Source of the DNA: a phage
Length of the DNA: 64,000 bases
Sequence record: OZ346222.1
Reading direction: 5' to 3' (one strand)
The translations under genes and the position numbers were made by a program. The notes under the pieces are model-generated. The model did no database searches. It was not told where the DNA came from and saw only the letters and a program-made list of their open reading frames with translations. Shown in pieces: positions 5,635-58,361 of this stretch (positions within the stretch are counted from its first letter, which is position 1; each line of letters starts with the position of its first letter).

Positions 5635-5947
5635 TACTTGAAAATCCCTGGCATATCAAGTGTAAGGAGGATTTCTAAAATGGATTTCCTCCTTTTGATA
5701 TTTCACCGGGCCAGATATTTTAAAATTCTTAGAAAATCAGAAAATGGATCGAAAACTAAAATGGATTTTTCAAGACAGGCACGATAAGATGTGCTGCTCA
5801 TTCTATCGTTCGCACCGTACTTTAAGTCACTATTCCAGATTTTTCCGCACATACTCTCACCCTTCTACCAGAACTTTCCCAGCTTACCTCTGACCTTTTA
5901 TAACAATAAGTCCATTATTATCAGAAAGTTTCGGCACATCTCTTTCG

Positions 5948-6140
5948 GTACTCGATCTGTTTTTCATTTCAAAGACCTGATTTTCTGAAAATTTTTCTCG
6001 ATAAATTTCTTAGTACTCGATCTGTTTTTCATTTCAAAGACCTGATTTTCTGAAAATTTTTCTCGATAAATTTCTTAGTACTCGATCTGTTTTTCGTTTT
6101 CTGAATCGGATTTTCTGGAAATCGTTCCAGCTCTCGACCT
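5948..6140. repeat. tandem direct repeat, about 64-bp unit, two full copies plus a diverged third
   Basis: Unit GTACTCGATCTGTTTTTCATTTCAAAGACCTGATTTTCTGAAAATTTTTCTCGATAAATTTCTTA repeated exactly twice, third copy diverges. Confidence 0.8.
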
Positions 6141-6305
6141 GAAATTTTTGGGGACGAAATCGATTTTTCGTTTTCAGAAATGGATTTTTAAAATTTCTAT
6201 ATGGGAATATTTTATGGGATACTGTTTTATAGGAAATTGTTACGGAGGGTAATTAGCATGCTAATTAAATTTATTAAATGCGAGGAGTTCTCATTTAGAA
6301 TTTTG

Positions 6306-7232: not shown

Positions 7233-7631
7233 ATGAAAACCACTACCTTTAATTTTGATAATGCAGACTTTTCTTTTTCTGATGTCAAGAACTGCCGCCG
7301 TGATCGTGGATTTTACAAGGCTTATAATCTGGTGGGCCTGGACGATGACAATAATTTGCACGAAGTAGCTGAGATCCGGTATTATGCCGCCGCCAGCGGT
7401 AACACTAACTACTGCGTTTTTTGGATACACGACAACAAGAACAATAAGTACGGTTATACTGGTGGCAAGGCGAGCGGTCACGGTTACGATAAAGCTAATG
7501 CAGCACTTGAGAGCGCATTAAATGCTATGGGGATCACTGCCAACGGCTGGATCTATGAAGAAGAGTTTTTGTCGGCACTTGCTGACCACCTGGGCTATAA
7601 AAAGCACATTGTAACATGCGCCCACGAATAA
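7233..7631 (+). CDS. hypothetical protein (132 aa)
   Basis: Track ORF; AAGAGGA RBS. Confidence 0.6.
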   Translation: MKTTTFNFDNADFSFSDVKNCRRDRGFYKAYNLVGLDDDNNLHEVAEIRYYAAASGNTNYCVFWIHDNKNNKYGYTGGKASGHGYDKANAALESALNAMGITANGWIYEEEFLSALADHLGYKKHIVTCAHE

Positions 7632-7637
7632 AAATTG

Positions 7638-7665
7638 TTGACACGCTGCAAAATTCAAGTAAACT
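7638..7665 (+). promoter_or_regulatory. sigma70-like promoter with 5' UTR hairpin
   Basis: TTGACA, 16-nt spacer, TAAACT; followed by hairpin GGCGGGAATGTTTCCCGCC and AAAGGA RBS. Confidence 0.45.
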
Positions 7666-7713
7666 AGTCACAAAAGGCGGGAATGTTTCCCGCCAACACA
7701 AAGGAAAAAGATC

Positions 7714-8118
7714 ATGAATAAGAACGTACGCCGCATCATGAACGAACTGGCAAACGATGAAAAAATTATTGACATGCATTTGATCAACATTTGCCGCCGT
7801 TGTGTAACATACAACAACCGCGCCGCAAAAGCGCGTGAGATGAACGCAAAAGGCACCTTAAAGCCATTCCAGGTGGTGGTAAAGGCCATTAAAGATGTAA
7901 CTAATACGGCAAACCAGGTACAGGGGAACACCAACGAGAGTACCAATATTGATCCGGCTTACATCATGAAACGGATCCGGACCTGCAAGAACAAAGAGCA
8001 AGTGTATAATGTCATAGACTGGTTGGATTCTATGGGCGATGTGGTGTACAATAGATTCTCGGCAGCTATTGAGATCCAGCTTGACAGGTTAGACGGTAAA
8101 GTACTTAAAACTTACTAA
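7714..8118 (+). CDS. hypothetical protein (134 aa)
   Basis: Track ORF. Confidence 0.6.
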   Translation: MNKNVRRIMNELANDEKIIDMHLINICRRCVTYNNRAAKAREMNAKGTLKPFQVVVKAIKDVTNTANQVQGNTNESTNIDPAYIMKRIRTCKNKEQVYNVIDWLDSMGDVVYNRFSAAIEIQLDRLDGKVLKTY

Positions 8119-8124
8119 ATTTAT

Positions 8125-8164
8125 TTTTAGATGGCCTTGACTCCAGGGCCATCAATAAAGTAAA
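8125..8164 (+). repeat. conserved intergenic element, copy 1
   Basis: TTTTTAGATGGCCTTGACTCCAGGGCCATCAATAAAGTAAA; palindromic arms GATGGCC/GGCCATC around an embedded TTGACT. Confidence 0.8.
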
Positions 8165-8208
8165 TTAATCTCAGCTAAGCGAAAAAGGGGGCTTTAAGAT
8201 GAGCACTA

Positions 8209-8318
8209 CACGCCAATACACAAAGGTAACTATTATCGCCTGCGTTGTCGGTTACATCCTGGCGCAAATGTTAATGAGTAGCGCTAACAGTTTTGCAAAA
8301 TTTTTCTTAAATTTTTAA
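8209..8318 (+). CDS. hypothetical hydrophobic micro-protein (36 aa)
   Basis: Below track cutoff; purine-rich RBS then ATG; hydrophobic core. Confidence 0.3.
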
Positions 8319-8346
8319 TTGACAAGCTAACTTAGATTGATATACT
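8319..8346 (+). promoter_or_regulatory. sigma70-like promoter
   Basis: TTGACA, 16-nt spacer, TATACT. Confidence 0.5.
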
Positions 8347-8397
8347 TAAACACGTAAACGGGAAAACTTCCCAGAACACACAAAAGGAGAAAACACC

Positions 8398-8739
8398 ATG
8401 ACTACTATGGCCGCCGCAGAAAAAGCTATTCAGATCGCCGCACTGAAAAAACAGATCGCAGACCTTGAGAACAAGATCGATAACTTTGAAATCGACGAGG
8501 ACAAGTACGACGAAAACTATGATGAATGGTTAGACGAGATCTACGGCGAAATTATGATCGGAAACATTTCTTTTCTTCCGTCGCGTATCCTCAAGGAGCT
8601 AGATCCTATCGCTTACCGCTGCGGATTTAGCGACTACATCGACAGCCTGGATATTGAGGACGATGAAGAATACCAGGAATTACAGACAGAGTTAGAAGAA
8701 GCAAAAGAAGAGCTTGCAGAACTGGAAGAAAACGAGTAA
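8398..8739 (+). CDS. hypothetical acidic coiled-coil protein (113 aa)
   Basis: Track ORF; AAAGGAGAA RBS. Confidence 0.6.
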   Translation: MTTMAAAEKAIQIAALKKQIADLENKIDNFEIDEDKYDENYDEWLDEIYGEIMIGNISFLPSRILKELDPIAYRCGFSDYIDSLDIEDDEEYQELQTELEEAKEELAELEENE

Positions 8740-8745
8740 GATTAT

Positions 8746-8785
8746 TTTTAGATGGCCTTGACTCCAGGGCCATCAATAAAGTAAA
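8746..8785 (+). repeat. conserved intergenic element, copy 2
   Basis: Identical 40-mer to copy 1. Confidence 0.8.
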
Positions 8786-8828
8786 CTTTATACTGTTAAC
8801 ACTGAACTAATGCATAGGAGTTAAAACC

Positions 8829-9074
8829 ATGGCAGCACTAATCACCAAATATTATGCCCCTACCAACACCAAAAGCGCCCGTATCATGGTAAAAGGCTTC
8901 GGACGTAAAAAGGTGTACACCTGGGATTATGCCTTAGACACGGAAGACAACTACACCAACGCGATGACCGATTTTATTAATGATCTGAACACGCGGATCT
9001 TGACAAATTATAAAATTACCGATATTGCCTATATAGGGGAAGGCGGGATCTGTTTTGTCGGTATCGTCAAATAA
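8829..9074 (+). CDS. hypothetical protein (81 aa)
   Basis: Track ORF; TAGGAG RBS. Confidence 0.6.
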   Translation: MAALITKYYAPTNTKSARIMVKGFGRKKVYTWDYALDTEDNYTNAMTDFINDLNTRILTNYKITDIAYIGEGGICFVGIVK

Positions 9075-9080
9075 GCTGTT

Positions 9081-9120
9081 TTTTCGGTGGTCCTGGTAGC
9101 AGGGCCATCTATAAAGATAG
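9081..9120 (+). repeat. conserved intergenic element, diverged copy
   Basis: TTTTCGGTGGTCCTGGTAGCAGGGCCATCTATAAAGATAG, same position class after a stop codon. Confidence 0.5.
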
Positions 9121-9149
9121 TTTATCAATACAATGAAAGGAGAAAGTAC

Positions 9150-9503
9150 ATGATCAGCGGGGCAAGTTTTATTATTGGCGCTATTGCTACGGCTTTAATT
9201 GTAAACAAGATCCAATCTAAAAACGAAAAAGATAGCAACGCCCTTACAGAATACCCGTTTTGGGTATTCAACGACAATGAAGACTATATTATCAAGTACA
9301 AGAATGAGAAGGGCGACCAGGTAACACCGCGACCGATCCCGGCTTACAAGATGCAAGAAACACTATACCGCCTAAAGGCTGGAGGCGCAAAAATCGTAGA
9401 CTTTTGGGGATACGATCACACAGATCAGGAAGTTATAAAGCGCCGTATCCGGGCTATTCAGGCCAATATTGAAGTTAGCAAGGGGGGAATATATGAAGAT
9501 TAA
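9150..9503 (+). CDS. membrane protein (117 aa)
   Basis: Track ORF 9087..9503 trimmed to ATG after AAAGGAGAAAG RBS; N-terminal TM helix. Confidence 0.55.
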   Translation: MISGASFIIGAIATALIVNKIQSKNEKDSNALTEYPFWVFNDNEDYIIKYKNEKGDQVTPRPIPAYKMQETLYRLKAGGAKIVDFWGYDHTDQEVIKRRIRAIQANIEVSKGGIYED

Positions 9504-9690
9504 TTTTGAGAAGATTGTAAAGCGATCTCATGCTTCCGAAGAGCTGCCGGAACGCCGCCAGCGCAACAATAAACTGAATAAGCCAAAAAGATTTGGGAAG
9601 ATCTGGCGGAATCATTATGATCGCAAATTACCGGGCCTGCTTTTGGAACGTGAACGACAGGCGGAACGATACCGCCACAAAGGCAAATAA
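9493..9690 (+). CDS. hypothetical basic protein (65 aa)
   Basis: Track ORF 9469..9690 trimmed to ATG after AAGGGGGGA RBS. Confidence 0.45.
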   Translation: MKINFEKIVKRSHASEELPERRQRNNKLNKPKRFGKIWRNHYDRKLPGLLLERERQAERYRHKGK

Positions 9691-9698
9691 CAACCAAC

Positions 9699-9726
9699 GC
9701 CCCGCCATTGTGCGGGGCTTTTTATT
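9699..9726 (+). terminator. intrinsic terminator
   Basis: GCCCCGC cattgt GCGGGGC followed by TTTTTATTT. Confidence 0.7.
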
Positions 9727-9871
9727 TCTATCCTACGAATAGCGCCCCTGGTTGGCCCTGTAAGCGCCAAAAAGGCCCCACCTATGCAATCGCCCACCTT
9801 TAACCTGAAAACATCGCTTAGGGCCGTTTTATGGCGTTAAAAATATCATTGACAGTGATTTTATTTAAAGC

Positions 9872-9899
9872 TTGACATCTTAAACAGGTTAGCTATACT
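9872..9899 (+). promoter_or_regulatory. sigma70-like promoter
   Basis: TTGACA, 16-nt spacer, TATACT. Confidence 0.55.
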
Positions 9900-9933
9900 A
9901 ACCACATCAAAGAGAGAGAAAGGAGTAAACGCC

Positions 9934-10194
9934 ATGCGTAAATTAAAAAATTTTGATAAAGTTGATGTTGTCCTGAATAATTTTTACTACTGCAACAACA
10001 AGGCCATTTGGTGGCGTGATAGTTCCACCGATAAAGTCAAGGCGCGCTTTCTCCAGGGGCACTGGCAAGGCCGCCCAGTGATTAAAATCATGGGGCAATT
10101 GGTAGCGTTTAAAAATTGCCGCCGTGTTGATGACGTTGAAGAGATCTTGAATATTTTACGCCACAATAATTTAAAAAATAGTGTTGACAAGTAA
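9934..10194 (+). CDS. hypothetical protein (86 aa)
   Basis: Track ORF; GAAAGGAG RBS. Confidence 0.6.
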   Translation: MRKLKNFDKVDVVLNNFYYCNNKAIWWRDSSTDKVKARFLQGHWQGRPVIKIMGQLVAFKNCRRVDDVEEILNILRHNNLKNSVDK

Positions 10195-10211
10195 ATCTCA
10201 ATAAGTATACT
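10184..10211 (+). promoter_or_regulatory. sigma70-like promoter with 5' UTR hairpin
   Basis: TTGACA, 16-nt spacer, TATACT; hairpin GGCGGGAAGTTTTCCCGCC follows. Confidence 0.5.
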
Positions 10212-10268
10212 TAAGCACACAGGCGGGAAGTTTTCCCGCCACTAACAAAGAAAATAGGAGAAAATATC

Positions 10269-10892
10269 ATGACCACCGTTAACATTACCACAGGTTGCAA
10301 TTTATCTTTCGACGTGCTGACCGACGAACAAAAAGAAAAAGCTGTTGAAATGGTCCGCGAAAGAGAAGAACACAGCGGGGATAACTTTTTTGCAGAAAGT
10401 GTAATTGAATACTATAAAGAATATGTTTTTCCAGAGTACGGGCTTGAAGATACCAAGGTACAGTGGTCCGGCTTTTGGTGTCAAGGCGACGGCGCATCAA
10501 TTAGCGCTGAAAATGTAAACTTAGAAAAATTCTTGCGTAAGGTTAAAGCGCTTACAAAATTTCGCTCAATTAGACACTTGTTCGGCACAATGCACGATGG
10601 CGAACTATCAGCCAGCGTTGAACGTATCCCGTTTAGCCATTATCATCACGAAAACACAATAGGCGGGTGCATCGATACCAACTGGCTAGACCTGACCACC
10701 AAGCAAGAGGATAAAATTGAAGAGCTGGAAGAGCTGATCACCGAGACGGTACGGGAGCTATCCCGCAAGGTTTACGTAGACCTGGAGCAGGCCTATCTTG
10801 AACAATTCACTACCGAAAACCTGATCGGCCTTATCGAGGCCAATGATTGGCGGTTTGATGTGGATGAGTATGGCGAGATGACTTTTTCATAA
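10269..10892 (+). CDS. hypothetical protein (207 aa)
   Basis: Track ORF; TAGGAGAA RBS. Confidence 0.65.
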   Translation: MTTVNITTGCNLSFDVLTDEQKEKAVEMVREREEHSGDNFFAESVIEYYKEYVFPEYGLEDTKVQWSGFWCQGDGASISAENVNLEKFLRKVKALTKFRSIRHLFGTMHDGELSASVERIPFSHYHHENTIGGCIDTNWLDLTTKQEDKIEELEELITETVRELSRKVYVDLEQAYLEQFTTENLIGLIEANDWRFDVDEYGEMTFS

Positions 10893-10900
10893 ATAAAGTG

Positions 10901-10929
10901 TTGCAATAACCTAAAAACCTGCTATATTA
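10901..10929 (+). promoter_or_regulatory. sigma70-like promoter with 5' UTR hairpin
   Basis: TTGCAA, 17-nt spacer, TATATT; hairpin GGGGCAAGACGTTTGCCCC follows. Confidence 0.45.
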
Positions 10930-10981
10930 AAACTCAAGGGGCAAGACGTTTGCCCCCACACAAAACAAAGAGGAAAACATC

Positions 10982-11362
10982 ATGAAAAACACTACTAAAG
11001 CTATTGACACCGTTATGTTTAACCTGGTTACCTTTCGCGAGGATATGAAAGATCTTCCACGTGAAACAGTGTGCGATCACATTGAAAACTATCGCAAACT
11101 AATCAAAGAGTTGCCTTTAAAACGTGACCAGTATGCGGCTAACGCCATGCTTAATGCCATGATCAAAAAGATGATTCAGTGTGATTTAACTCTGGCCTAT
11201 GACTATGCGGGTGGTCGTTTTGCAGTATACAATCAGCCCGTGCCCGGTATGGGCACCACCGAAGAATTGCACGCGCTCAATCTAAAACAAGACGTATGGG
11301 ATAACATGCCCCGCGTGGTGGTGTGGGCAGAAAGCGGAAAGATTTACGGCGATAATTTTTAA
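10982..11362 (+). CDS. hypothetical protein (126 aa)
   Basis: Track ORF; AAGAGGAAA RBS. Confidence 0.6.
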   Translation: MKNTTKAIDTVMFNLVTFREDMKDLPRETVCDHIENYRKLIKELPLKRDQYAANAMLNAMIKKMIQCDLTLAYDYAGGRFAVYNQPVPGMGTTEELHALNLKQDVWDNMPRVVVWAESGKIYGDNF

Positions 11363-11373
11363 TCAGGTAACAG

Positions 11374-11397
11374 GCGGCATATTTGCCGCCTTATTGT
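11374..11397 (+). terminator. probable intrinsic terminator
   Basis: GGCGGCA tatt TGCCGCC followed by TTATTGTT. Confidence 0.45.
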
Positions 11398-11426
11398 TAA
11401 ACAGAGTTGCAAAAGAGGTACATAGA

Positions 11427-11798
11427 ATGGAATTTATTATTTTGGCTGTAGTAGTTGCCTTGTTCAACGCCTGGATCGCTGGCAAGATGGGTAGATCCGC
11501 CTTTTTATGGTTTATTATATCTATTTTCCTGGGGGTGGTTGCAACTATTGTACTTGTTATCCTTGCAATTGTTGACAAGGGGAATAATAGAAAGGGTAAA
11601 GTATTTTCAGACCTGTACGACGCTCAAACGTTTGTCAACGCCTATTATAGTGATCTTCCAGTCTCCCTACGCTGCAGCCTGGCACAACAAGTTTTCGATG
11701 AGGCTAAAACCAGAGATCAAGCCCATGAGATATGTTTAACTGAGGCGGATCGCCTATTTGAGAGGAATAGAAAATATGTGGGCCAACCGTTTAAATAA
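11427..11798 (+). CDS. membrane protein (123 aa, two predicted TM helices)
   Basis: Track ORF 11394..11798 trimmed to ATG after AAAGAGG RBS. Confidence 0.55.
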   Translation: MEFIILAVVVALFNAWIAGKMGRSAFLWFIISIFLGVVATIVLVILAIVDKGNNRKGKVFSDLYDAQTFVNAYYSDLPVSLRCSLAQQVFDEAKTRDQAHEICLTEADRLFERNRKYVGQPFK

Positions 11799-12021
11799 TG
11801 CCACGTTAATTAATCCCTTTAGTGAAGATTTGAAGCCAGCCGCCTGGCGTGATGGATTCAATAACGAACGCTTTATTTTCAAGCCTGATCTTGAGGAATT
11901 TTATAACAATGGATCGAACAACAGCGGAGATAATTTTTCTTGGGATGTGCGTGGTGATGGTACTCCTGGGGGCCATTGTAAACCACGTCACTACTACCAG
12001 GAGGAAAGAGGGAGACGATGA
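11776..12021 (+). CDS. hypothetical protein (81 aa)
   Basis: Track ORF 11758..12021 trimmed to ATG after GAGAGGA RBS. Confidence 0.45.
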   Translation: MWANRLNNATLINPFSEDLKPAAWRDGFNNERFIFKPDLEEFYNNGSNNSGDNFSWDVRGDGTPGGHCKPRHYYQEERGRR

Positions 12022-12137
12022 CAACCAAGGATAAGCCCCGTACCGATAAGGCGCGCCGGGTTATGGTATGGCTTGAGATCATCGCCCTTGAAATATTGCT
12101 AGGCGTAGGGATGTACTTTATCGCTGTAAGTAACTAA
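12018..12137 (+). CDS. hypothetical membrane micro-protein (39 aa)
   Basis: Below track cutoff; ATGA overlap with upstream stop; hydrophobic C-terminus. Confidence 0.3.
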   Translation: MTTKDKPRTDKARRVMVWLEIIALEILLGVGMYFIAVSN

Positions 12138-12141
12138 GAGC

Positions 12142-12170
12142 GGCCCCCGATCATGGGGGCCTATCTTTTA
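12142..12170 (+). terminator. intrinsic terminator
   Basis: GGCCCCC gatcat GGGGGCC followed by TATCTTTT. Confidence 0.7.
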
Positions 12171-12191
12171 AAAAATTTTTCTTCCGGGGTG

Positions 12192-12219
12192 TTGCAATCC
12201 GGTCCGGAATGTGGATAAT
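12192..12219 (+). promoter_or_regulatory. sigma70-like promoter with 5' UTR hairpin
   Basis: TTGCAA, 16-nt spacer, GATAAT; the -10 region contains TGTGGATAA (DnaA-box-like); hairpin GGGGAGCTAATCCCC follows. Confidence 0.5.
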
Positions 12220-12275
12220 AACAATCAACGGGGAGCTAATCCCCACCACCACAAAAACCAGAAAGGAGAAACAAA

Positions 12276-12476
12276 ATGAGCAACAATATCCGCGTTATTA
12301 ACTTCAAAAAAGAAGAAAAAATTGCCGTGCTGATTGACGGTCAAGAAATCTTCAAGGGCGACTATGAAGATCATCAAACGGCGATTAGTATCACTCGCGT
12401 GATTGGTTATCATAATTTCTACCCCCAAGGCGCTGAGGCAGCAGTTAAACGAATCAAAGAGATTGTAGGCCTGTAA
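12276..12476 (+). CDS. hypothetical protein (66 aa)
   Basis: Track ORF; AAAGGAGAA RBS. Confidence 0.55.
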   Translation: MSNNIRVINFKKEEKIAVLIDGQEIFKGDYEDHQTAISITRVIGYHNFYPQGAEAAVKRIKEIVGL

Positions 12477-12483
12477 AATTTAT

Positions 12484-12524
12484 TTTTAGATGGCCTTGAC
12501 TTCAGGGCCATCGATAAAGTAAAT
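12484..12524 (+). repeat. conserved intergenic element, copy 3
   Basis: TTTTTAGATGGCCTTGACTTCAGGGCCATCGATAAAGTAAA, two mismatches to copies 1 and 2. Confidence 0.8.
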
Positions 12525-12560
12525 TTAAACCCTGTTAAAATACCACGCAGTTAACAAGGA

Positions 12561-12869
12561 GTGATAGACATGTTTATCCAGGCTAATAATCTTTATTTCT
12601 TTGATGGTCAGATCGTAGATGGTGTGGAAGTGGAGATCACCGGGTGCCCTGGCGGTCAGGCTATGACTTTTCGGAATAATGCCTTTGATGATTCTCATAT
12701 CGTTATGAGAATGGAAGTTACGAAGCTGGACGACAAGAAAACACTTATTGACTATTCTGTGAAAGATCATCCAGACTACCGCATGATCCATGGTGATTTG
12801 TGCATTGTTGACCGTGACAAGGTGGGCGGCATTGTGATCGCTATTGTGAACGATGTTTTCTCAAACTAA
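12561..12869 (+). CDS. hypothetical protein (102 aa)
   Basis: Track ORF; AAGGAG RBS. Confidence 0.6.
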   Translation: MIDMFIQANNLYFFDGQIVDGVEVEITGCPGGQAMTFRNNAFDDSHIVMRMEVTKLDDKKTLIDYSVKDHPDYRMIHGDLCIVDRDKVGGIVIAIVNDVFSN

Positions 12870-12886
12870 TTTCAGCAGGCGATTTT

Positions 12887-13237
12887 ATGAAAGTCAAACT
12901 ATATTACCTTAATGAGCTTAACCCCCTTGCCCAGGTCCGCGCCCTAGCTAATACCTTGATTTGTGAGAAATCTGTATATTGTGTTGAGCTTAACGCCATG
13001 CGTGAACGTCTCAAAGGTGGTTACTTTGACATCCATGCTGCAATCAACGGCCTGAATATGGAATTTATACGCTTACGTAACAGCCGCCGGAATCTGGCAA
13101 GAATGGAACAAGATCCGGCCCACCTTCGTAAGCTGGTTATTGAAAATCATCTGATGTTTAATGCCGAGGGTGATTATTACCATTTTCACCGCAAACGCTG
13201 GTACCGTGGCGGCAATACAGGCAAGAATGCAAAATAA
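12887..13237 (+). CDS. hypothetical protein (116 aa)
   Basis: Track ORF. Confidence 0.55.
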   Translation: MKVKLYYLNELNPLAQVRALANTLICEKSVYCVELNAMRERLKGGYFDIHAAINGLNMEFIRLRNSRRNLARMEQDPAHLRKLVIENHLMFNAEGDYYHFHRKRWYRGGNTGKNAK

Positions 13238-13272
13238 GGCCCCTAGCAGGGCCTGCAGCAATATAATCACAT

Positions 13273-13306
13273 AAAGGCCATGCGGTTGCATGGCCTTTAT
13301 TATTTT
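13273..13306 (+). terminator. intrinsic terminator
   Basis: AAAGGCCATGC ggtt GCATGGCCTTT followed by ATTATTTT. Confidence 0.7.
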
Positions 13307-13354
13307 GGCGTTACAACGGCATACGGGGCGCTTAAAAAATTTTTAAAGAAGTAC

Positions 13355-13382
13355 TTGCATCATTCCCGACAATATGGATAAT
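13355..13382 (+). promoter_or_regulatory. sigma70-like promoter with 5' UTR hairpin
   Basis: TTGCAT, 16-nt spacer, GATAAT; hairpin GGGGGAGGCCCCC follows. Confidence 0.5.
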
Positions 13383-13439
13383 AAGAGTTGTCGAGGGGGA
13401 GGCCCCCAATCGTTGACCAGATAGATAGGAGTTAAAATC

Positions 13440-13724
13440 ATGGCTATTGTTACCGCTGGCGATGTAGTAGAAATGGAAGCAAAATACTTAAAAGCGGGTA
13501 TGCACATCCTACGGAATGATCAAGAGCTATTATTAACGATGGTTGACTATAATCACGGCCAGGATTATCCAAGCATCGACTACTTTTTTGAGTATGTTGA
13601 TGAAGAGTTGAAAGAGGATGAGGCCTATTGCGGTGAGTTCTGCAACTTCTTTTGTCCTGATGAGGTTGTAAAGGTTATTTATCAACCTGGCGTAGCTTTC
13701 CCGCTGCACGCTATCAATAAATAA
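13440..13724 (+). CDS. hypothetical protein (94 aa)
   Basis: Track ORF; TAGGAG RBS. Confidence 0.6.
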   Translation: MAIVTAGDVVEMEAKYLKAGMHILRNDQELLLTMVDYNHGQDYPSIDYFFEYVDEELKEDEAYCGEFCNFFCPDEVVKVIYQPGVAFPLHAINK

Positions 13725-14303: not shown

Positions 14304-14355
14304 ACATAAGGCGGTGGAATGGTCCGCCACCTGGAACAAAGAAGAGGTAAACACC

Positions 14356-14601
14356 ATGAAAAGCAATAAAGGTTATAACGGTTACAAAAACAAAACTCAT
14401 TGGAATGTAAGCCTTTGGATTAATAACGATGAGTCATTGTACCGGTTGGCCCAAGGCTTTATTAACGCCAATGCTAATCGTAATGATGCGGCGCGGGATA
14501 TGATGCTTTTTCTGGAGCTAACCGGACAAGATAAGACCCTGGACGGCTTCAAGTACAGCACTACGGCGATCCGTGCCGCGATGGTTGGAATGAAACACTA
14601 A
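14356..14601 (+). CDS. hypothetical protein (81 aa)
   Basis: Track ORF 14275..14601 trimmed to ATG after AAGAAGAGG RBS. Confidence 0.55.
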   Translation: MKSNKGYNGYKNKTHWNVSLWINNDESLYRLAQGFINANANRNDAARDMMLFLELTGQDKTLDGFKYSTTAIRAAMVGMKH

Positions 14602-14792
14602 AAGCACATAGCTGCCTTACCCTGGGGCTGTGGTAGCGGCCCCATGAATAAGGTTACTAACAGAAGAGAATAAACACCATGAAACAGAAATTAATCGATG
14701 CAGTGATCTTGGTTATTGCCCTGGGTATTGGCCTGATTGCAACCATGTCTAATATGATCTTGTCTTCCAACGGTATCGGGTGAGGTTGGCAA

Positions 14793-23872: not shown

Positions 23873-24268
23873 TTACTGAAACAGTGCGGATAAATTACCT
23901 TCTGGTGGGAACTTATCTGCCAAAAACGGTGTTAGCACAGTAGCCTTCTGAAGATCTGGGGTCCACTCGTTGTTCAGAACATCCCAGTAGTACGCAATGT
24001 TGCTGTGTGGGTGCCGCATTACGAACTTTTTCCCTTCGTAGTCATCTGAAACCTCTACAGAAGAAATAACAACAGAATCTTCAAGGGTTTCTTCATAGAA
24101 AGATCCACCTTCAAATTTCCAACGAGATGCAAGAGCCCCTGCCTTGAACGCTGCAGATAACGGACTGTCGGCAAGAACATACATTTCTTGCACTCTGTCG
24201 CTGCGATCTTTGCTTCTTACGTTGTATACAGTATCTGAGCTATACTCAACACGGTATAGTCTTACCAT
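23873..24268 (-). CDS. hypothetical protein, paralog family C (131 aa)
   Basis: Track ORF; shares HP...YW...W(T)P motif with 26074..26472. Confidence 0.55.
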   Translation of the reverse strand: MVRLYRVEYSSDTVYNVRSKDRSDRVQEMYVLADSPLSAAFKAGALASRWKFEGGSFYEETLEDSVVISSVEVSDDYEGKKFVMRHPHSNIAYYWDVLNNEWTPDLQKATVLTPFLADKFPPEGNLSALFQ

Positions 24269-24627
24269 TACCGCACCTCCTCAATAACTTCCACATCTGA
24301 ACCCACCACAAATGCAAAAGGACAGGTTTCATGAAAGACATCCGGATCTCCGCCAAGCTTGCTAACAATTTCTCCACCACTAATAAACACAAGCTCACCG
24401 ATATTCATCAGATTGCTGAAATAGTATCCATAATGATTAAAGAATGCAGCAGGGTCAGGTAGACTAGTAGCCTCAAGTTCTACATCGGTTGAGATTACTT
24501 TCTTATCATAACCTCTCGCCTTCTGAGATGCAAGATCCGCAGAATCTTCAGGCGACCTGAGATGCACAGGAATTGTTTCACCAATAAAGCGTACTTTCAT
24601 ATTATCACCCAACAACCATAGCTTCAA
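24268..24627 (-). CDS. small acidic protein, paralog family A-like (119 aa)
   Basis: Track ORF; internal MKVRFIGE may be the true start; ends VEVIEEVR. Confidence 0.5.
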   Translation of the reverse strand: MKLWLLGDNMKVRFIGETIPVHLRSPEDSADLASQKARGYDKKVISTDVELEATSLPDPAAFFNHYGYYFSNLMNIGELVFISGGEIVSKLGGDPDVFHETCPFAFVVGSDVEVIEEVR

Positions 24628-24868
24628 AAGGGGTCATGAACGAATAAACGGCATCATCATCTGCTTCAGGGAATGCTCCCAAAGACTTCATGTCTGAGCC
24701 CTTGACAAATACAAGGTTTTGATCAAAAGCTTCTTGGGGATCAATCCGATACATATTTCGTAGAATATCGCTTACCTCCTCATCAAGAGGTGAGTATGCT
24801 GTGCACGTTTTTCCGATCAAGCTTTGAGAATCAGGGTATCCACCTGAAGTTTTAAAATAAACAATCAT
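24605..24868 (-). CDS. hypothetical protein (87 aa)
   Basis: Track ORF. Confidence 0.5.
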   Translation of the reverse strand: MIVYFKTSGGYPDSQSLIGKTCTAYSPLDEEVSDILRNMYRIDPQEAFDQNLVFVKGSDMKSLGAFPEADDDAVYSFMTPFEAMVVG

Positions 24869-24958
24869 ATAGTATCACCTCTGGTAAGAGATGGGATTCC
24901 TTTCCCACAAATAATTACAAACCTTCCTTATCGAGGAAGTATGCTAATCCAAGCAGGA

Positions 24959-25228
24959 TTATTCCTCTACAATCTCATACACATCAGGAGTTACAATCAA
25001 CTCTTCTCCGTTACCCGGTGCAATAAACACCACCAAACCTTCAGGTGTGTGCTTTTTAGCCATCTCGATAACATCTTCCCGCAGGGCTGGCTCCATCAGA
25101 TCAAAACCTTCACCCAGGGCATCACGAACCACCTTCATATAGTCCACTGGTTGTGCTTCAACAATCATGCCTTCAACCAGACCACAATTTTTGTCTGCCA
25201 GCTCAGTTTTGAATAATTTAATTTTCAT
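24959..25228 (-). CDS. small acidic protein, paralog family B (89 aa)
   Basis: Track ORF; MKIKLFK start, ends VYEIVEE. Confidence 0.55.
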   Translation of the reverse strand: MKIKLFKTELADKNCGLVEGMIVEAQPVDYMKVVRDALGEGFDLMEPALREDVIEMAKKHTPEGLVVFIAPGNGEELIVTPDVYEIVEE

Positions 25229-25261
25229 TTAGAGGTCTCCTCAATTATTTGATATTAATAG

Positions 25262-25363
25262 CCGTAACCTAACACATTAACTACAACTGCGATTGCAAAC
25301 ATAATTTCAAAGCATGCAATCTCTACATTTGGGACTAATTTCTTGATCACACCCATTGTAGCA
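25262..25363 (-). CDS. hypothetical hydrophobic micro-protein (33 aa)
   Basis: Below track cutoff; GAGGTG RBS 6 nt before ATG. Confidence 0.3.
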
Positions 25364-25365
25364 CC

Positions 25366-25683
25366 TCATTCTCTAAAGTCAATCTTTACTTTGCCTTTCC
25401 CCTTACCTTTCTTTCCACCGCATTTAGCCAGTTGACGTGCTGCAACATCTACCATACGGTCAGTTGCCTCGTAAGCATCACTGCCTTTAGCTTTGGCAAT
25501 AACTTCTTTTCCAGAATTGTCAAAAATGAACGCCATAACTTCCTGGTGATCATTTTCAACTTTTACACTCACACGTGCATAGTTGGCAGAGGGATGCAAA
25601 CGCTCCAGCTTAGACATTTTGTGGGAAATGAAAGACACCATACCTTCAGTGATTTCTACGTTGCCAGTGATTTCAATTTGCAT
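25366..25683 (-). CDS. hpf: ribosome hibernation promoting factor / RaiA-like protein
   Basis: Track ORF; MQIEITGNVEITEGM...KLERL...SVKVEN...AKAKGSDAYEATDRMVDVAARQLAK follows the bacterial HPF/YfiA pattern. Confidence 0.8.
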   Translation of the reverse strand: MQIEITGNVEITEGMVSFISHKMSKLERLHPSANYARVSVKVENDHQEVMAFIFDNSGKEVIAKAKGSDAYEATDRMVDVAARQLAKCGGKKGKGKGKVKIDFRE

Positions 25684-25765
25684 AACGTGTTCCTTTTAAA
25701 GAAGAGGGAACCAAACCCTCTTTGAAAACAATGATACTAAATCTGAAGCGTTGTGTCAACAGTTT

Positions 25766-26056
25766 TTACAGATTGTTGTCGATAGTTTTTAAAATATCCA
25801 CAGCAAGATCTGCCATTTTTCGAACATACTCTGCAAACTCAACAGGATCCTTGATCAAAGAATTCACAGGGTCGTACCCTAGAGCGTTCAAAATGGCTGC
25901 AGCATCTACAACCTTCTCATCATTTGCGAAGATCTCTCCATCAAACTTGTAGGTCCATTTTGAGTCAATCTTGGCAGGGAATGATTGGTCAACGCTTGTT
26001 ACACCATCCTTTTTAAACGCTCCGGTGTTATCAGTGTCTAGAACTAAATCCATCAT
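25766..26056 (-). CDS. hypothetical protein (96 aa)
   Basis: Track ORF. Confidence 0.5.
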   Translation of the reverse strand: MMDLVLDTDNTGAFKKDGVTSVDQSFPAKIDSKWTYKFDGEIFANDEKVVDAAAILNALGYDPVNSLIKDPVEFAEYVRKMADLAVDILKTIDNNL

Positions 26057-26073
26057 GTTAGTACCTCACCGTT

Positions 26074-26472
26074 TCAGTTTAGCTTTTCTTCAACAACCCC
26101 ATAGCTCGGGACAGAGTCAAGAGCTTTCTGGTTTAAAAGTGGTGTAGCAGAATCTGCAAACGGTGTCCAAGTTTTTGTTCTGGCGTTCCAGTAATGCTTC
26201 ACTCTGGAATCTGGATGCACTATAACAAAAACTTTTTCACTTGTCAACACATTAATTTCTTCCACACCCCTGCTGATAATTTCTCCGTCATATCCCCCGG
26301 TCTGGTATCCTTCGTACCAGGTTCTTGCATAGGCATAGCCAGCCTGCCAGCATGCAGCCTCCTCCGAGGTGGAGACTACGTAGAAGTCTTTCTCAAATTC
26401 TGGGATACGCCCTTGCTTTACGCTCCAAGCTCCGCGAATTTTCATTGTAACTTTGAATAGTTTATTTTTCAC
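26074..26472 (-). CDS. hypothetical protein, paralog family C (132 aa)
   Basis: Track ORF; paralog of 23873..24268. Confidence 0.55.
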   Translation of the reverse strand: MKNKLFKVTMKIRGAWSVKQGRIPEFEKDFYVVSTSEEAACWQAGYAYARTWYEGYQTGGYDGEIISRGVEEINVLTSEKVFVIVHPDSRVKHYWNARTKTWTPFADSATPLLNQKALDSVPSYGVVEEKLN

Positions 26473-26484
26473 AACGGTTACCCA

Positions 26485-26739
26485 TCACAGTTCTACAATA
26501 TCTGCATCTGACCCTGCCCCAAAGGCATAATAGGACTCTTCCCCGAAATAATATTCCGGTGCACCAGCAGCGATCAGGTCTGATCCCAAAATGAATACCA
26601 CGTTGTGGCCTACATAGCTGTGATTTTGCCGCACAGGATCATCCCACGGCAACCCTTCGAAGTATACCGCAGGGACGACCTTTCCTTTCAGGAAGGATTG
26701 CCCCAAGTAGACGTTAGAATCAAGAATTTTAACCTTCAT
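26485..26739 (-). CDS. small protein, paralog family A (84 aa)
   Basis: Track ORF; MKVKILD...GK(V)...LIAAGA motif. Confidence 0.55.
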   Translation of the reverse strand: MKVKILDSNVYLGQSFLKGKVVPAVYFEGLPWDDPVRQNHSYVGHNVVFILGSDLIAAGAPEYYFGEESYYAFGAGSDADIVEL

Positions 26740-26956
26740 GATCGTCCTCCACTATCTCTACATCCTCACCTAGGGCAAAGTTGTAGGTCCACTGACTGTC
26801 AAAGCATTCCTGAGATGCACCAGCGGCAATAAGATCTGCCCCTTTTATTTTTAAAAGGTCAGGGTAATCTTCGTTAGGGACAGCAGTAAACACTTTCCCT
26901 ACTAAAGGCTCCTGACCAATATAGAAGCTTGAATCTAAAACTTTAACTTTCATCAA
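26729..26956 (-). CDS. small acidic protein, paralog family A (75 aa)
   Basis: Track ORF; MKVKVLD...DLIAAGA; ends VEIVEDDHEG. Confidence 0.55.
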   Translation of the reverse strand: MMKVKVLDSSFYIGQEPLVGKVFTAVPNEDYPDLLKIKGADLIAAGASQECFDSQWTYNFALGEDVEIVEDDHEG

Positions 26957-27240
26957 CGGTCTCCATCAGGTGGTTGTGGGACGTAAACACTGTTACGAAT
27001 ATCGTCCGCAGTATAGTAATAAGTGTCTCCAACCCTATCTCTGGCTGCAATGTACTCTGCTATACCAATAAGTGCCATTGATTTGGTGGCGTATCTTCCC
27101 CACTCGTTAGCTCCCCAGTAGAATTTAGACCAGTAGGGAATAATACCGAACAAATATACCTTTTGACGAACTTCCCAGTAAGTGCCTTTTCCGACAAGTT
27201 TAAACTCTACTTCACTACTGTTAATCTTTTTCATTATCAA
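26953..27240 (-). CDS. hypothetical protein (95 aa)
   Basis: Track ORF; ATGA coupling. Confidence 0.5.
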   Translation of the reverse strand: MIMKKINSSEVEFKLVGKGTYWEVRQKVYLFGIIPYWSKFYWGANEWGRYATKSMALIGIAEYIAARDRVGDTYYYTADDIRNSVYVPQPPDGDR

Positions 27241-27533
27241 TCTCCCTCTACCGTGGTCGGATTGTCAGTAAGAAATTGAGCATTGGCTGGAGGCACGCCT
27301 GACATTTTCCACACAACCATAAGTTTGTAACCAGGAACTCTATTAAGTGCAGATCGAGTAGAGTTTGTGCACGTATACTTTCGCTTTCCAAACCCGTTCT
27401 CCATCATAATCCAGTACCCAGTATCTTTGTCACCAGGTATCGGTAGACCACCTTCATCAACCCACTGAATGGACCACGGCACGATGGCTACAGCTTTATA
27501 TTTAAACTTTTTAAACCACTCAAAAAGTTTCAT
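27237..27533 (-). CDS. hypothetical protein (98 aa)
   Basis: Track ORF. Confidence 0.5.
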   Translation of the reverse strand: MKLFEWFKKFKYKAVAIVPWSIQWVDEGGLPIPGDKDTGYWIMMENGFGKRKYTCTNSTRSALNRVPGYKLMVVWKMSGVPPANAQFLTDNPTTVEGD

Positions 27534-27628
27534 AATTCAGCCTCGCATAGACATAATCACTATAAACAGGCAAACAATGAATCCGAATGCCACGCCACCC
27601 ATAAACGTTAATATTGATGCAATCATAG

Positions 27629-27826
27629 TCAATCAGCCTCGCTTGGCAACTCTTCTACCTTAACATGCCGAAAAGTGTTACCGTAATGGTTGATCCATGA
27701 CATCAGCTCGCTTTCTTGCTCTTCCTCTGGGATGAACTCTCGAATGCTGACAAGTTTTAAGAAAACCCAATCACAATCTGCACCCATTCTACCAGACAGG
27801 CAATAGTGCTTCATAAAACCCCCCAC
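27629..27826 (-). CDS. hypothetical protein (65 aa)
   Basis: Track ORF. Confidence 0.5.
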   Translation of the reverse strand: MGGFMKHYCLSGRMGADCDWVFLKLVSIREFIPEEEQESELMSWINHYGNTFRHVKVEELPSEAD

Positions 27827-27831
27827 CTGGT

Positions 27832-28026
27832 TTAGAATATTGCTTCTTCCATTGCACCTGAGAGCAACAAAGAGGTGATCTGGCTAACATTCATCTCAGA
27901 CTCTACTTCCTCCCCTTTGAAAGGTTCGCGGCAGAATAGGACTGTTTCAGGACTTTTACTTCGAACAATATAATACAAATCATTCAATGTGTTGTAGTAA
28001 TAAGTGTTAAAACGTAAGTTTTTCAT
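27832..28026 (-). CDS. hypothetical protein (64 aa)
   Basis: Track ORF. Confidence 0.5.
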   Translation of the reverse strand: MKNLRFNTYYYNTLNDLYYIVRSKSPETVLFCREPFKGEEVESEMNVSQITSLLLSGAMEEAIF

Positions 28027-28310
28027 TTTCTAGTCCCCTTCTTAGATTTTTGTGTAGAAACGCTTTCTGCAATACGAGACAAACGTTCTTCTGAAGCCTT
28101 GCCTATTCCAGGTTTTTTGAGTGGGTTATCTTTATGACCACAATCCAATTGGATATTGGATACCTCTCCAACCTTGTAAGTCAATTCTAGCAAAAGGTTG
28201 TCGTCCTTGTCAAATGTTCTTACGATAAATTTTTTATCGTTCTCCTGAACTTCGTATCGGGTACCCGCAGTATACAGCATGGTGCCATCCGCATAGGATA
28301 TCCAGATCAT
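28023..28310 (-). CDS. hypothetical protein (95 aa)
   Basis: Track ORF; ATGA coupling. Confidence 0.5.
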   Translation of the reverse strand: MIWISYADGTMLYTAGTRYEVQENDKKFIVRTFDKDDNLLLELTYKVGEVSNIQLDCGHKDNPLKKPGIGKASEERLSRIAESVSTQKSKKGTRK

Positions 28311-28654
28311 TGAACCTCCTTCTGCTGCAACAGCATTAACTCTTTGTTGGAGATTTTTACTGCTGTTTTTATTGTTCCATCTTCACGAAACCACGACCAG
28401 AACTCTACAGTGTCACCACTATCAAGTAAAGCATGCCCATGGTAAAAATCTTTGTCCTTAGACAGTTTCTCATCTATATCTGCATCAACACATTCGTGAT
28501 CCATAGCATTTTGCCTGAACGCATCGGTTATGCCAATGCACGCCTTGCTCTCAAGACTGGTATATCCGATATCTTTTAATTCAGTTTCCCAAGTCCAGTA
28601 CCCTATAAAAGCTAAAACAGCTACCCACAGTAATAACGTTTTAATCTTTGGCAT
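28307..28654 (-). CDS. signal-anchored/secreted protein (115 aa)
   Basis: Track ORF; hydrophobic N-terminus LLLWVAVLAFIGYW. Confidence 0.5.
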   Translation of the reverse strand: MPKIKTLLLWVAVLAFIGYWTWETELKDIGYTSLESKACIGITDAFRQNAMDHECVDADIDEKLSKDKDFYHGHALLDSGDTVEFWSWFREDGTIKTAVKISNKELMLLQQKEVQ

Positions 28655-28716
28655 TCTCTCTACCTCTTTCTTAGTTTATTTCACTATGGCACATCCTTTG
28701 TGCCATATCTCAACTA

Positions 28717-28959
28717 CTACTTAAATAGTAGTTCAAAATAGTGCAAAATTAACAGAAGTTGAACTACACCTAGTGCAACGGCGAGTATGTTAATCTTAGA
28801 ATCGAAAAACTTCTTAACTTTTACTCTAAAAGGTTCCTTAATGTCCTTTACGATCCTATCTATAGATGACCTCATATCTCTGATTACCATCCTGAACATT
28901 AAAGACGGATGCTCCCCCCATCTCTGTAACGGAATCAAAAACATACTCTCTTCGGTCAT
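28717..28959 (-). CDS. hypothetical membrane protein (start uncertain)
   Basis: Track ORF overlapping the upstream gene by about 100 nt; true start probably an internal Met; hydrophobic C-terminus. Confidence 0.35.
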   Translation of the reverse strand: MTEESMFLIPLQRWGEHPSLMFRMVIRDMRSSIDRIVKDIKEPFRVKVKKFFDSKINILAVALGVVQLLLILHYFELLFK

Positions 28960-29188
28960 AAGGGCCGCCAGCTCTGCGTATTAACCTCTCCACAGAGACT
29001 TCGAACGTCACACCTGTAACGTAATCATCTATAACAAGTCGTGACGGGTCTTTACCTTTACTATCAAGAGGTATCAAAGTTATCTTTCCAGATTTTGTTA
29101 AAATTTCCCCTTTTTCAAGCAAGGTGTACCAATGCTCTCTGCCAAGACTGTTGAGGCACGTTTTTACATATTTAACAAACATCGTCAC
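28856..29188 (-). CDS. hypothetical protein (110 aa)
   Basis: Track ORF. Confidence 0.5.
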   Translation of the reverse strand: MTMFVKYVKTCLNSLGREHWYTLLEKGEILTKSGKITLIPLDSKGKDPSRLVIDDYVTGVTFEVSVERLIRRAGGPYDRREYVFDSVTEMGGASVFNVQDGNQRYEVIYR

Positions 29189-29388
29189 CCCTCATCGCAC
29201 GTCTGATATAACCACTCTATAAAATCTTGATACCATTCGCCCTCTGAGCGCTCCGTAGGCCAATAATCTTCACCCTCTCGTGCATTAAAATCTGAGTATT
29301 CAACTTTCCACTCCTTTACCAGCTCGTGGAGAAGGTTTTCAGCCTGCTCTAAAGATTTATTTTTTACCATTGCTGTCTCCTTTTTCAA
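29185..29388 (-). CDS. hypothetical protein (67 aa; second ATG with AAGGAGA RBS may be the true start)
   Basis: Track ORF. Confidence 0.5.
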   Translation of the reverse strand: MKKETAMVKNKSLEQAENLLHELVKEWKVEYSDFNAREGEDYWPTERSEGEWYQDFIEWLYQTCDEG

Positions 29389-29589
29389 GATAGTTATACA
29401 TCAGAACTGCACCACCTAAGATGGCTACCAGTAACAATACCCCAGATAGCATCTCAATAAACATGGCTTGAAACACTGGAAGGCCTCCCTAAATTAACGC
29501 ACCATTTTAAATACATGCTCTTTTCCCATAAAGGTGCCTGGCTAAGATCTGCGTAGAACGCAATCTCTTTAAGAACAGTATAAACAGTT

Positions 29590-29826
29590 TTAGGTGCGGT
29601 CTCCATCCCTACCCTCCTTTTTCTCCTTCCTGATATTCTTGTAGTAATCAACTAGGCACATTATTACGATGAAGATAACAACAGGCCAAAAAGGTGCAGC
29701 AGTGATGATGGTGATAAAATCATCAAACTTCACCCTTCGTCTGGACACGATGCATACACCTGTCAAGAATACCGCTGTTATAACGGACATTACCAGGTAA
29801 CCTATTAGCACAACATTTATACTCAT
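29590..29826 (-). CDS. membrane protein (78 aa, two TM helices)
   Basis: Track ORF. Confidence 0.55.
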   Translation of the reverse strand: MSINVVLIGYLVMSVITAVFLTGVCIVSRRRVKFDDFITIITAAPFWPVVIFIVIMCLVDYYKNIRKEKKEGRDGDRT

Positions 29827-58203: not shown

Positions 58204-58278
58204 ACCAGTAAAAACTTAAATATCTGTACTATAAGGATTCGTATGTTTTATGTTCACTCTGGAACAGAGGTTAGTAAC

Positions 58279-58361
58279 TGTCCGTGATACGGACACTACT
58301 GTCCGTCACGCGGACACATCTGTCCGTAATACGGACACTAACTGTCCGTGATACGGACACA
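58279..58361. repeat. tandem array of four palindromic sites (C)TGTCCGT-N4/5-ACGGACA(C)
   Basis: Copies at about 58279, 58299, 58320, 58343; period 20-23 bp. Confidence 0.85.

Follow-up and report, generated by a model that had tools for sequence, protein, structure and literature searches.

Four copies of a conserved intercistronic RNA hairpin in the early region of an rV5-like phage: a candidate RNase III processing element

The Locus and Its Repeated Element

Phage sequence record OZ346222.1 was analyzed over a stretch of 64,000 nucleotides (nt), referred to here as the window, with respect to a short repeat (the element) that recurs between small genes within its first 13 kb. The 4.8 kb surrounding the element share 94-97% identity with more than 100 Vequintavirus (rV5-like) phages of Escherichia coli, a group that finds wide use in the typing of E. 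coli O157 and in phage-therapy collections. The plus strand of the window corresponds to the minus strand of rV5, and the locus to its early region of small open reading frames (ORFs; rV5 genes ~181-195). No function could be assigned to the flanking genes from PHROGs or Pfam. Early transcription units of the rV5-like phages have so far been annotated with predicted promoters and terminators only; of these, P185, P186, P192, P194, t181, and t184 of rV5 are recognizable in the window, and the element is not among the rV5 promoters or terminators predicted (PMC3606486, Table S4).

An earlier note on this DNA had described an intergenic repeat situated just after stop codons, with two identical copies, a third carrying two mismatches, and a diverged one near 9081. 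All four copies were recovered, but the coordinates given in the note were off by one; perfect matches to a 41-nt string lie at 8124-8164 and 8745-8785 and a match differing at two positions lies at 12483-12523, while no chance copies of it are expected (100 dinucleotide shuffles). The diverged copy was located at 9073-9122 by a repeat finder (68% identical), which also lengthened the unit to approximately 50 nt. These copies, designated c1 to c4 in their order along the window (Table 1), all lie on the same strand and inside 4.4 kb, and they were the only matches returned when a covariance model of the unit was run with filters off on both strands of the 64 kb. Each lies in the sense orientation, downstream of a stop codon and upstream of the ribosome-binding site that follows. 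The position relative to the stop codon is as the note had it: every copy starts with the AA of an upstream TAA (8116-8118, 8737-8739, 9072-9074, and 12474-12476 for c1 to c4, respectively), and 31-43 nt separate its end from the next start codon (at 8199, 8829, 9150, and 12570). A terminator scan detected no terminator between any of the predicted promoters that head these units and the corresponding copy of the element; all four copies are thereby placed between cistrons of polycistronic transcripts, the transcripts themselves being predicted.

The distribution of the element appears to be narrow. Searches by blastn with a 54-nt unit gave matches in Vequintavirus records only, and the covariance model of the unit found no match in 100 kb of the Salmonella phage PVP-SE1, which belongs to the sister genus Seunavirus. 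Scanning IMG/VR for the pattern CAGGGCCATCNATAAAG gave 18 loci, of which three, on two rV5-like contigs, carry the element; the others were chance occurrences. With Rfam (evalue mode, 7500-13500), no meaningful family was identified, the sole overlap being a chance-level match of c4 to the rhtB small RNA (23.1 bits, where the gathering score is 55; E 1.7). The literature searched contained no paper linking rV5-like phages with either RNase III or the promoter-early stem-loops (PeSLs) of other phages.

The RNA Fold and Its Conservation

The earlier note had placed the sequence TTGACT inside a palindrome, with a T-run before the hairpin on the plus strand and an A-run after it on the minus strand. 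TTGACT does lie within the palindrome, at the top of its 5' arm and in the loop, but the palindrome, rather than 7-10 bp, is an interrupted helix of approximately 21 bp, and the two runs are not separate features; together they make up its lower stem. The T-run upstream of the GGCC palindrome (a U-run in RNA) pairs with the downstream AAAGTAAATT / AAAGUAAAUU, and the plus-strand RNA therefore forms a single hairpin of approximately 50 nt. This hairpin comprises a lower stem of 10-11 bp, a 2 x 3 internal loop with 2 nt on its 5' side and 3 nt (AAU, UAU, or GAU) on its 3' side, an upper stem of 10 bp, and a tetraloop. With 20-21 predicted pairs per copy (21 in the model), it extends over about two helical turns. 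Plus-strand folding energies range from -21 to -26 kcal/mol with z-scores of about -6 (for c1, c3, and c4), whereas the minus strand folds at -9 to -15 kcal/mol only; its folding is far weaker because several of the pairs are G-U on the plus strand. The similarity between copies starts and stops precisely at the hairpin boundaries. In the diverged c3, the lower stem is compensated, the upper stem is G-U-compatible, and the loop is GTAG. A 60-nt sliding-window fold of the whole window was swamped by folds of the coding regions.

Conservation of the fold was assessed with 49 plus-strand instances of the element, 35 of them distinct, from 16 sources (the window, 13 GenBank relatives, and two IMG/VR contigs). 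Among the 35 distinct versions, 96.7% of pair cells were found to hold standard pairs, and this value fell to 35-57% when the 3' partners were slid by 1-3 columns. Four pairs of the lower stem have been altered on both sides (GC/AU/GU, UA/CG, UA/AU/GU/GC, and AU/UA). The upper stem is 99.7% paired, and every change in it is wobble-compatible on the plus strand; read from the other strand, or as part of a symmetric DNA operator, the same G-U changes would give C-A mismatches. The loop sequences vary freely (ACTC, ACAC, ACCC, ACGC, ACTT, GTAG, GTAA, GCTG, GTTG, and one 5-nt loop), with all four bases occurring at loop position 3. Judged from this alignment, in which the sequences are closely related, many of the changes are inherited among the c3 orthologues, and the columns were fitted to the model, the compensatory changes show that selection maintains the fold itself. 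The element is thus very probably a selected RNA structure of some kind, and its features are best explained if it acts as RNA and not as a DNA site. Maintenance is not absolute: the c1 orthologue of phage Gotham has lost the fold through a 5-nt deletion in the 3' arm, and hence individual copies can decay.

Resemblance to the RNase III Sites of T7

Precedent for hairpins in such positions is provided by the early precursor RNA of phage T7, which contains five RNase III signals (PMC3867540), and in E. coli the sites of this enzyme are enriched in intergenic regions within transcripts (PMC6212723). RNase III substrates span approximately two helical turns, with a minimum of 11 bp from the scissile bond to the tetraloop (PMC1540722), and internal loops within them confine cleavage to one phosphodiester, on one strand, and leave stabilizing 3' hairpins (PMC1540722, PMC3867540). 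When folded with the tool used for the element, the T7 sites R0.3, R0.5, R1, R1.1, R4.7, and R18.5 each present an upper stem of 9-10 bp, a loop of 3-5 nt, and a 3-nt internal loop on the 3' side (UAU, AAU, or CAU), directly after which the RNA is cut. RNase III sites are not listed in the T7 GenBank records searched; the site coordinates used are those reportedly given by Dunn and Studier in 1983.

Among known systems, the RNase III signals of the T7 early region (R0.3, R0.5, R1, R1.1, and R1.3) come closest to the element, and the likeness to them is one of anatomy. Both sets are sense-strand intercistronic hairpins of about two helical turns that start at or beside the upstream stop codon, and both have an asymmetric internal loop with a 3-nt 3' side ending in U. 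R1 shares with the element its 2 x 3 topology and the AAU, and R1.1, R4.7, and R18.5 are close to it. In R1.1 as in c1, c2, and c4, U-A and U-G are the second and third pairs below the tetraloop, a combination identified as the optimal 'distal box' (Pertzev and Nicholson, PMC1540722). A G-C pair closes the upper stem beside the loop, and assignment of the proximal box was uncertain. The two sets also differ. Sequence homology is undetectable, the T7 consensus AAGGUC...GGCCUUUAUGAU being absent from the element; the lower stem of the element is longer and more regular (10-11 bp); three of its copies are near-identical, whereas the T7 sites are only loosely alike; and it belongs to another lineage, a Vequintavirus myovirus.

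A covariance model (R2) built solely from seven T7 sites was run without filters on the window, and c1 to c4 ranked third to sixth among all matches in the 128 kb of strand. Each was aligned in the expected register with no non-canonical pair. The best match of this model was a terminator hairpin, AAAGGCCAUGC...GCAUGGCCUUUAU at 13259-13309 (rV5 t177), with scores of 24.2 bits (minus strand) and 16.3 bits (plus strand); as it is followed by a U-tract when read in the direction of the gene, it is probably no more than a terminator. A stricter descriptor of the architecture of the element matched five places on the plus strand, compared to approximately one in shuffled sequences. Four of these were c1 to c4, and the fifth was a hairpin at 14614-14654 with a 6-bp lower stem, an internal loop, an upper stem of 9-10 bp, and the tetraloop GGUA. 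It begins 13 nt past a stop codon (14599-14601) and ends 25 nt before the next start codon, and its 3' side, CAUGAAUAAGGU, resembles the CAUCAAUAAAGU of the element. Neither the unit model nor the T7 model detected this hairpin, which is possibly a fifth copy that has diverged very far, or else a separate site of this kind.

Proposed Function

Given its anatomy and conservation, the element is best filed as a putative phage intercistronic processing hairpin of the RNase III type. The reading that we favor, and hold with moderate confidence, is that it serves as a processing and stabilizer hairpin for host RNase III and doubles as a recombination substrate. In this proposal, the element would be transcribed within polycistronic early messages and fold into its hairpin of approximately 50 nt; host RNase III would bind the helix and, by analogy with R1 and R1.1, make a single cut directly after the last nucleotide, a U, on the 3' side of the internal loop. 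This cut would separate the upstream and downstream cistrons, and the upstream message would be left with a protective 3'-terminal stem-loop. An effect on translation was also considered. On predicted cleavage, the mean unpaired probability of the downstream ribosome-binding site was 0.60/0.59, 0.63/0.61, and 0.40/0.38 in three copies and went from 0.47 to 0.69 in c3; accessibility being hardly altered and showing no consistent effect, the unmasking of this site by cleavage was rejected and is not proposed.

A number of observations weigh against a role for RNase III. Of the ten T7 positions considered, only eight folded as hairpins, and seven of these went into the model; R6.5 and R13, which did not fold in this way, were dropped. 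The scores of the individual copies with that model are weak (13.5-15.6 bits; E 0.16-0.7), and in the control PVP-SE1 (200 kb of strand) four matches were just as strong, of which at least two are terminator hairpins. Because PVP-SE1 gives equally strong matches, the result with the T7 model is a formal statement of architectural likeness and not proof. With an upper stem of 10 bp, the 11-bp minimum is reached only if loop nucleotides (up to three) stack, as they likewise must in R1.1 itself. At the positions where the other copies have U-A/U-G, c3 has U-A/C-G. The 3' arm and the AUAAAG that follows it are invariant in all copies, which exceeds the sequence constraint known for RNase III alone. 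Finally, no transcript or cleavage data for any rV5-like phage were found in the literature searched.

Recombination at the Copies

Three of the copies are near-identical over approximately 50 bp and are therefore also substrates for homologous recombination. ECP32, ECP26, phiWec189, and one IMG/VR contig lack the 621 bp that run from c1 to c2 and carry in their place one hybrid copy, flanked on the left as c1 is and on the right as c2 is. In 241Ecol014PP, the 81-amino-acid gene between c2 and c3 is absent, and a c2/c3 hybrid copy is found at the junction. Such variants are rare, the c1/c2 form occurring in three and the c2/c3 form in one of approximately 121 records. The copies are thus crossover points for either the loss or the gain of early-gene cassettes. 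The junctions show how small early genes are swapped between close relatives, which is useful both for phage engineering and for the interpretation of gene content.

Other junctions in this region lie outside the element. Approximately 290 bp (14368-14658, including the hairpin at 14614) are missing in Gotham and A12a, where the indel junction is a repeated ribosome-binding-site leader, AGAAGAGnTAAACACCATGAAA, present at 14334-14361 and 14652-14682. In general, indels in this region would seem to arise through short, conserved regulatory repeats. The phage rV5_ev146 lacks the equivalent of 7705-8210, comprising a 134-amino-acid gene and c1, and diverges past 9640; these junctions also fall outside the element.

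Alternative Explanations

The explanation closest to the favored one is a structured hairpin that acts without RNase III, either as a barrier to 3'-exonucleases after cleavage elsewhere or as the site of another endonuclease or of an RNA-binding protein, whether encoded by the phage or by the host. The structural and covariation evidence applies to it equally, and the 3' CAGGGCCAUC-N-AUAAAG, invariant in the four copies as well as in their orthologues, suggests that a specific sequence is recognized in addition to the shape of a helix. However, no particular protein is indicated, and the match to the T7 sites (2 x 3 loop, 3' loop ending in U, 10-bp upper stem, and U-A/U-G) would have to be coincidental; we regard this explanation as rather unlikely. 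Of the functions in DNA, the earlier note had thought of a promoter with its -35 hexamer occluded by a stem-loop or operator. An internal sigma-70 promoter for the downstream gene (TTGACT/TTGACA, 18-bp spacer, TAAATT/TAAACT), perhaps regulated by a factor binding the palindrome, has several points in its favor. The resemblance itself is real, in that c1, c2, and c4 carry TTGACT-18-TAAATT/TAAACT and score 9/12 in a consensus scan. Moreover, orthologues with the loop ACAC carry a perfect TTGACA, the -10 of rV5 promoter P194 is also TAAACT, two copies are called by the PhagePromoter software in the Gotham record (MT682716), and T7 promoters and RNase III sites occupy the same intergenic spaces. 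Several points nevertheless count against a promoter as what has been conserved. Sites scoring 9/12 are near chance here (40 found against 26.7 expected), and c3, with CTGGTA...ATAGTT, is not called as a promoter yet is conserved as a hairpin. Insertions of 1 nt give spacers of 20 in a c1 orthologue and 19 in a c4 orthologue with the hairpin kept, and the '-10' positions covary with the 5' strand, preserving pairing rather than TATAAT. The element, missing from the curated rV5 promoter list, is also without the GC-rich 5' stem-loop and CA-rich leader typically found after most of the strong local promoters, and its arms are without the symmetry that an operator would need. We therefore find promoter function improbable as an account of the element; the promoter or operator reading is secondary at most, and three of the copies may contain a weak internal promoter. 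Occlusion of a -35 hexamer by a stem-loop is a mechanism not expected in duplex DNA, and the operator is not favored because the two arms have not been kept symmetric; with arm changes that are asymmetric and G-U-only, a DNA operator or cruciform was rejected. An intrinsic terminator was likewise rejected, in agreement with the view of the note that the element is not a canonical one: since no U-tract follows the hairpin on either strand (AAUAAAGUAAAU on the plus strand and UAAAAAUAAA on the minus), it is not a terminator, and it was absent from both the terminator scan and the rV5 terminator list.

Other explanations start from the repeat as DNA that moves or recombines. PeSLs of T4-like phages were reportedly described by Arbiol and colleagues in 2010. 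In these modules, a stem-loop lies just upstream of a good sigma-70-like early promoter, which is followed by a Shine-Dalgarno sequence and a start codon (Comeau et al., 2014; PMC4122927). Like PeSLs, the copies of the element are short conserved intergenic repeats in which a stem-loop is combined with sigma-70-like hexamers; they too are grouped among small early ORFs and contain the indel junctions of close relatives. On this precedent (PMC4122927), the repeat could be a recombination module, kept because it permits the shuffling of cassettes and with only a secondary role as RNA; the precise position of the deletion or insertion junctions within copies and the clustering of these in a variable region of small early ORFs would fit. 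Unlike in PeSLs, however, the hexamers lie inside the hairpin and not after it, the resemblance to a promoter is weak and one copy lacks it, it is the fold rather than the promoter that is conserved, and the phage is not T4-like. Recombination would be expected at any 50-bp repeat with no need of selection, the junction variants are rare, and the compensatory changes point to selection on the fold. Quite improbable, then, as the reason for which the repeat is kept, recombination is read as a consequence of the repeats and not as their selected function, because the element does not have the PeSL layout and the neighboring indel uses a ribosome-binding-site repeat, an effect not specific to the element. 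A combined proposal, a 50-bp 'punctuation cassette' that superimposes three codes, namely an RNase III hairpin, a sigma-70 promoter with its -35 in the apical loop region and its -10 in the 3' lower strand, and a crossover site for early-gene cassettes, is in our view doubtful; if true, it would mean PeSL-type modular shuffling outside the T4 group with a different design of element. The element might, lastly, be a selfish miniature palindromic insertion (MITE-like, of the Correia/NEMIS or ERIC kind) that has spread in the early region, given that the similarity between copies is bounded precisely by the hairpin ends. The Correia/NEMIS repeats of Neisseria are likewise palindromic, intergenic, and co-transcribed with flanking genes, contain putative promoters, and form RNA hairpins that are cut by RNase III and affect mRNA levels (PMC2229807). 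But Correia/NEMIS and ERIC repeats measure 100-200 bp, number from tens to hundreds of dispersed copies, and show TA duplications, terminal inverted repeats, and both filled and empty sites, whereas the element consists of only four copies of 50 bp, all oriented alike within 4.4 kb and restricted to one phage genus, and no empty site with intact flanking genes was found among the 16 sources; an insertion of this type is very improbable.

If the copies of the element are indeed RNase III sites, the early messages of rV5-like phages would be processed as in T7. This would change how operons, mRNA stability, and promoter annotations are read in these phages, the last of these because one deposited genome labels two copies as promoters. 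Nothing in such a finding would surprise specialists in phage RNA processing.

Coordinates and Other Features of the Region

The coordinates of the element, of its parts, and of the features around it are listed in Table 1. At four strong early promoters of the region (8319-8395, 10184-10268, 10901-10981, and 12192-12275), a short GC-rich 5' stem-loop comes after the promoter, and then a CA-rich leader and the Shine-Dalgarno sequence. The early intergenic spaces of PVP-SE1 (24000-29750) have the same promoter-plus-hairpin layout, with GGCCGGGG...CCCCGGCC stems.

Table 1. Positions in the window of the four copies, their predicted parts and cut sites, and associated features
Feature	Position	Strand	Description and basis
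c1	8117-8167	+	Extended hairpin; -22.7 kcal/mol, z -6.05
c2	8738-8788	+	Same hairpin, core identical to c1; -20.7 kcal/mol
c3	9073-9123	+	Diverged copy (68% identity); -25.8 kcal/mol, z -6.06
c4	12476-12526	+	Same hairpin, loop ACTT, 3' internal loop GAT; -24.4 kcal/mol, z -6.87
c1 lower stem	8118-8127/8157-8166	+	RNA fold
c1 internal loop	8128-8129 and 8154-8156	+	RNA fold
c1 upper stem	8130-8139/8144-8153	+	RNA fold
c1 tetraloop	8140-8143	+	ACTC; RNA fold
Predicted RNase III cut, c1	8156/8157	+	After U ending the 3-nt 3' internal loop; analogy with R1 and R1.1, register of T7 model
Predicted RNase III cuts, c2, c3, c4	8777/8778, 9112/9113, 12515/12516	+	Equivalent positions; same analogy
Promoter-like hexamers, c1	8137-8142, 8161-8166	+	TTGACT and TAAATT, spacer 18; consensus scan
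Promoter-like hexamers, c2, c4	8758-8787, 12496-12525	+	Same arrangement, none in c3; consensus scan
c1-c2 cassette	8168-8737	+	39-amino-acid gene 8199-8318, promoter 8319-8346, 113-amino-acid gene 8398-8739
c2-c3 cassette	8789-9072	+	81-amino-acid gene 8829-9074
Predicted promoter, unit with c1	7638-7665	+	Sigma-70 type, TTGACA-16-TAAACT; consensus scan; rV5 P194, P192
Predicted promoter, unit with c2/c3	8319-8346	+	
Predicted promoter, unit with c4	12192-12219	+	

Two further repeats were observed in the window. At 58275-58360, four tandem units of 21-22 bp, each an inverted repeat TGTCCGTnnnnACGGACA, lie in a region that folds at approximately -35 kcal/mol; this looks like an operator or iteron array. 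At 5938-6188, a 65-bp tandem repeat of three to four units, two of them identical, occupies a stretch without convincing ORFs and may correspond to the 'non-coding' box of the rV5 map. Among the database records, 17 GenBank entries (MG0656xx) labeled 'Campylobacter phage' are approximately 94% identical to this E. coli rV5-like region. Those inspected are unannotated, and A12a is flagged UNVERIFIED; the assignment of these records to a Campylobacter host looks doubtful.

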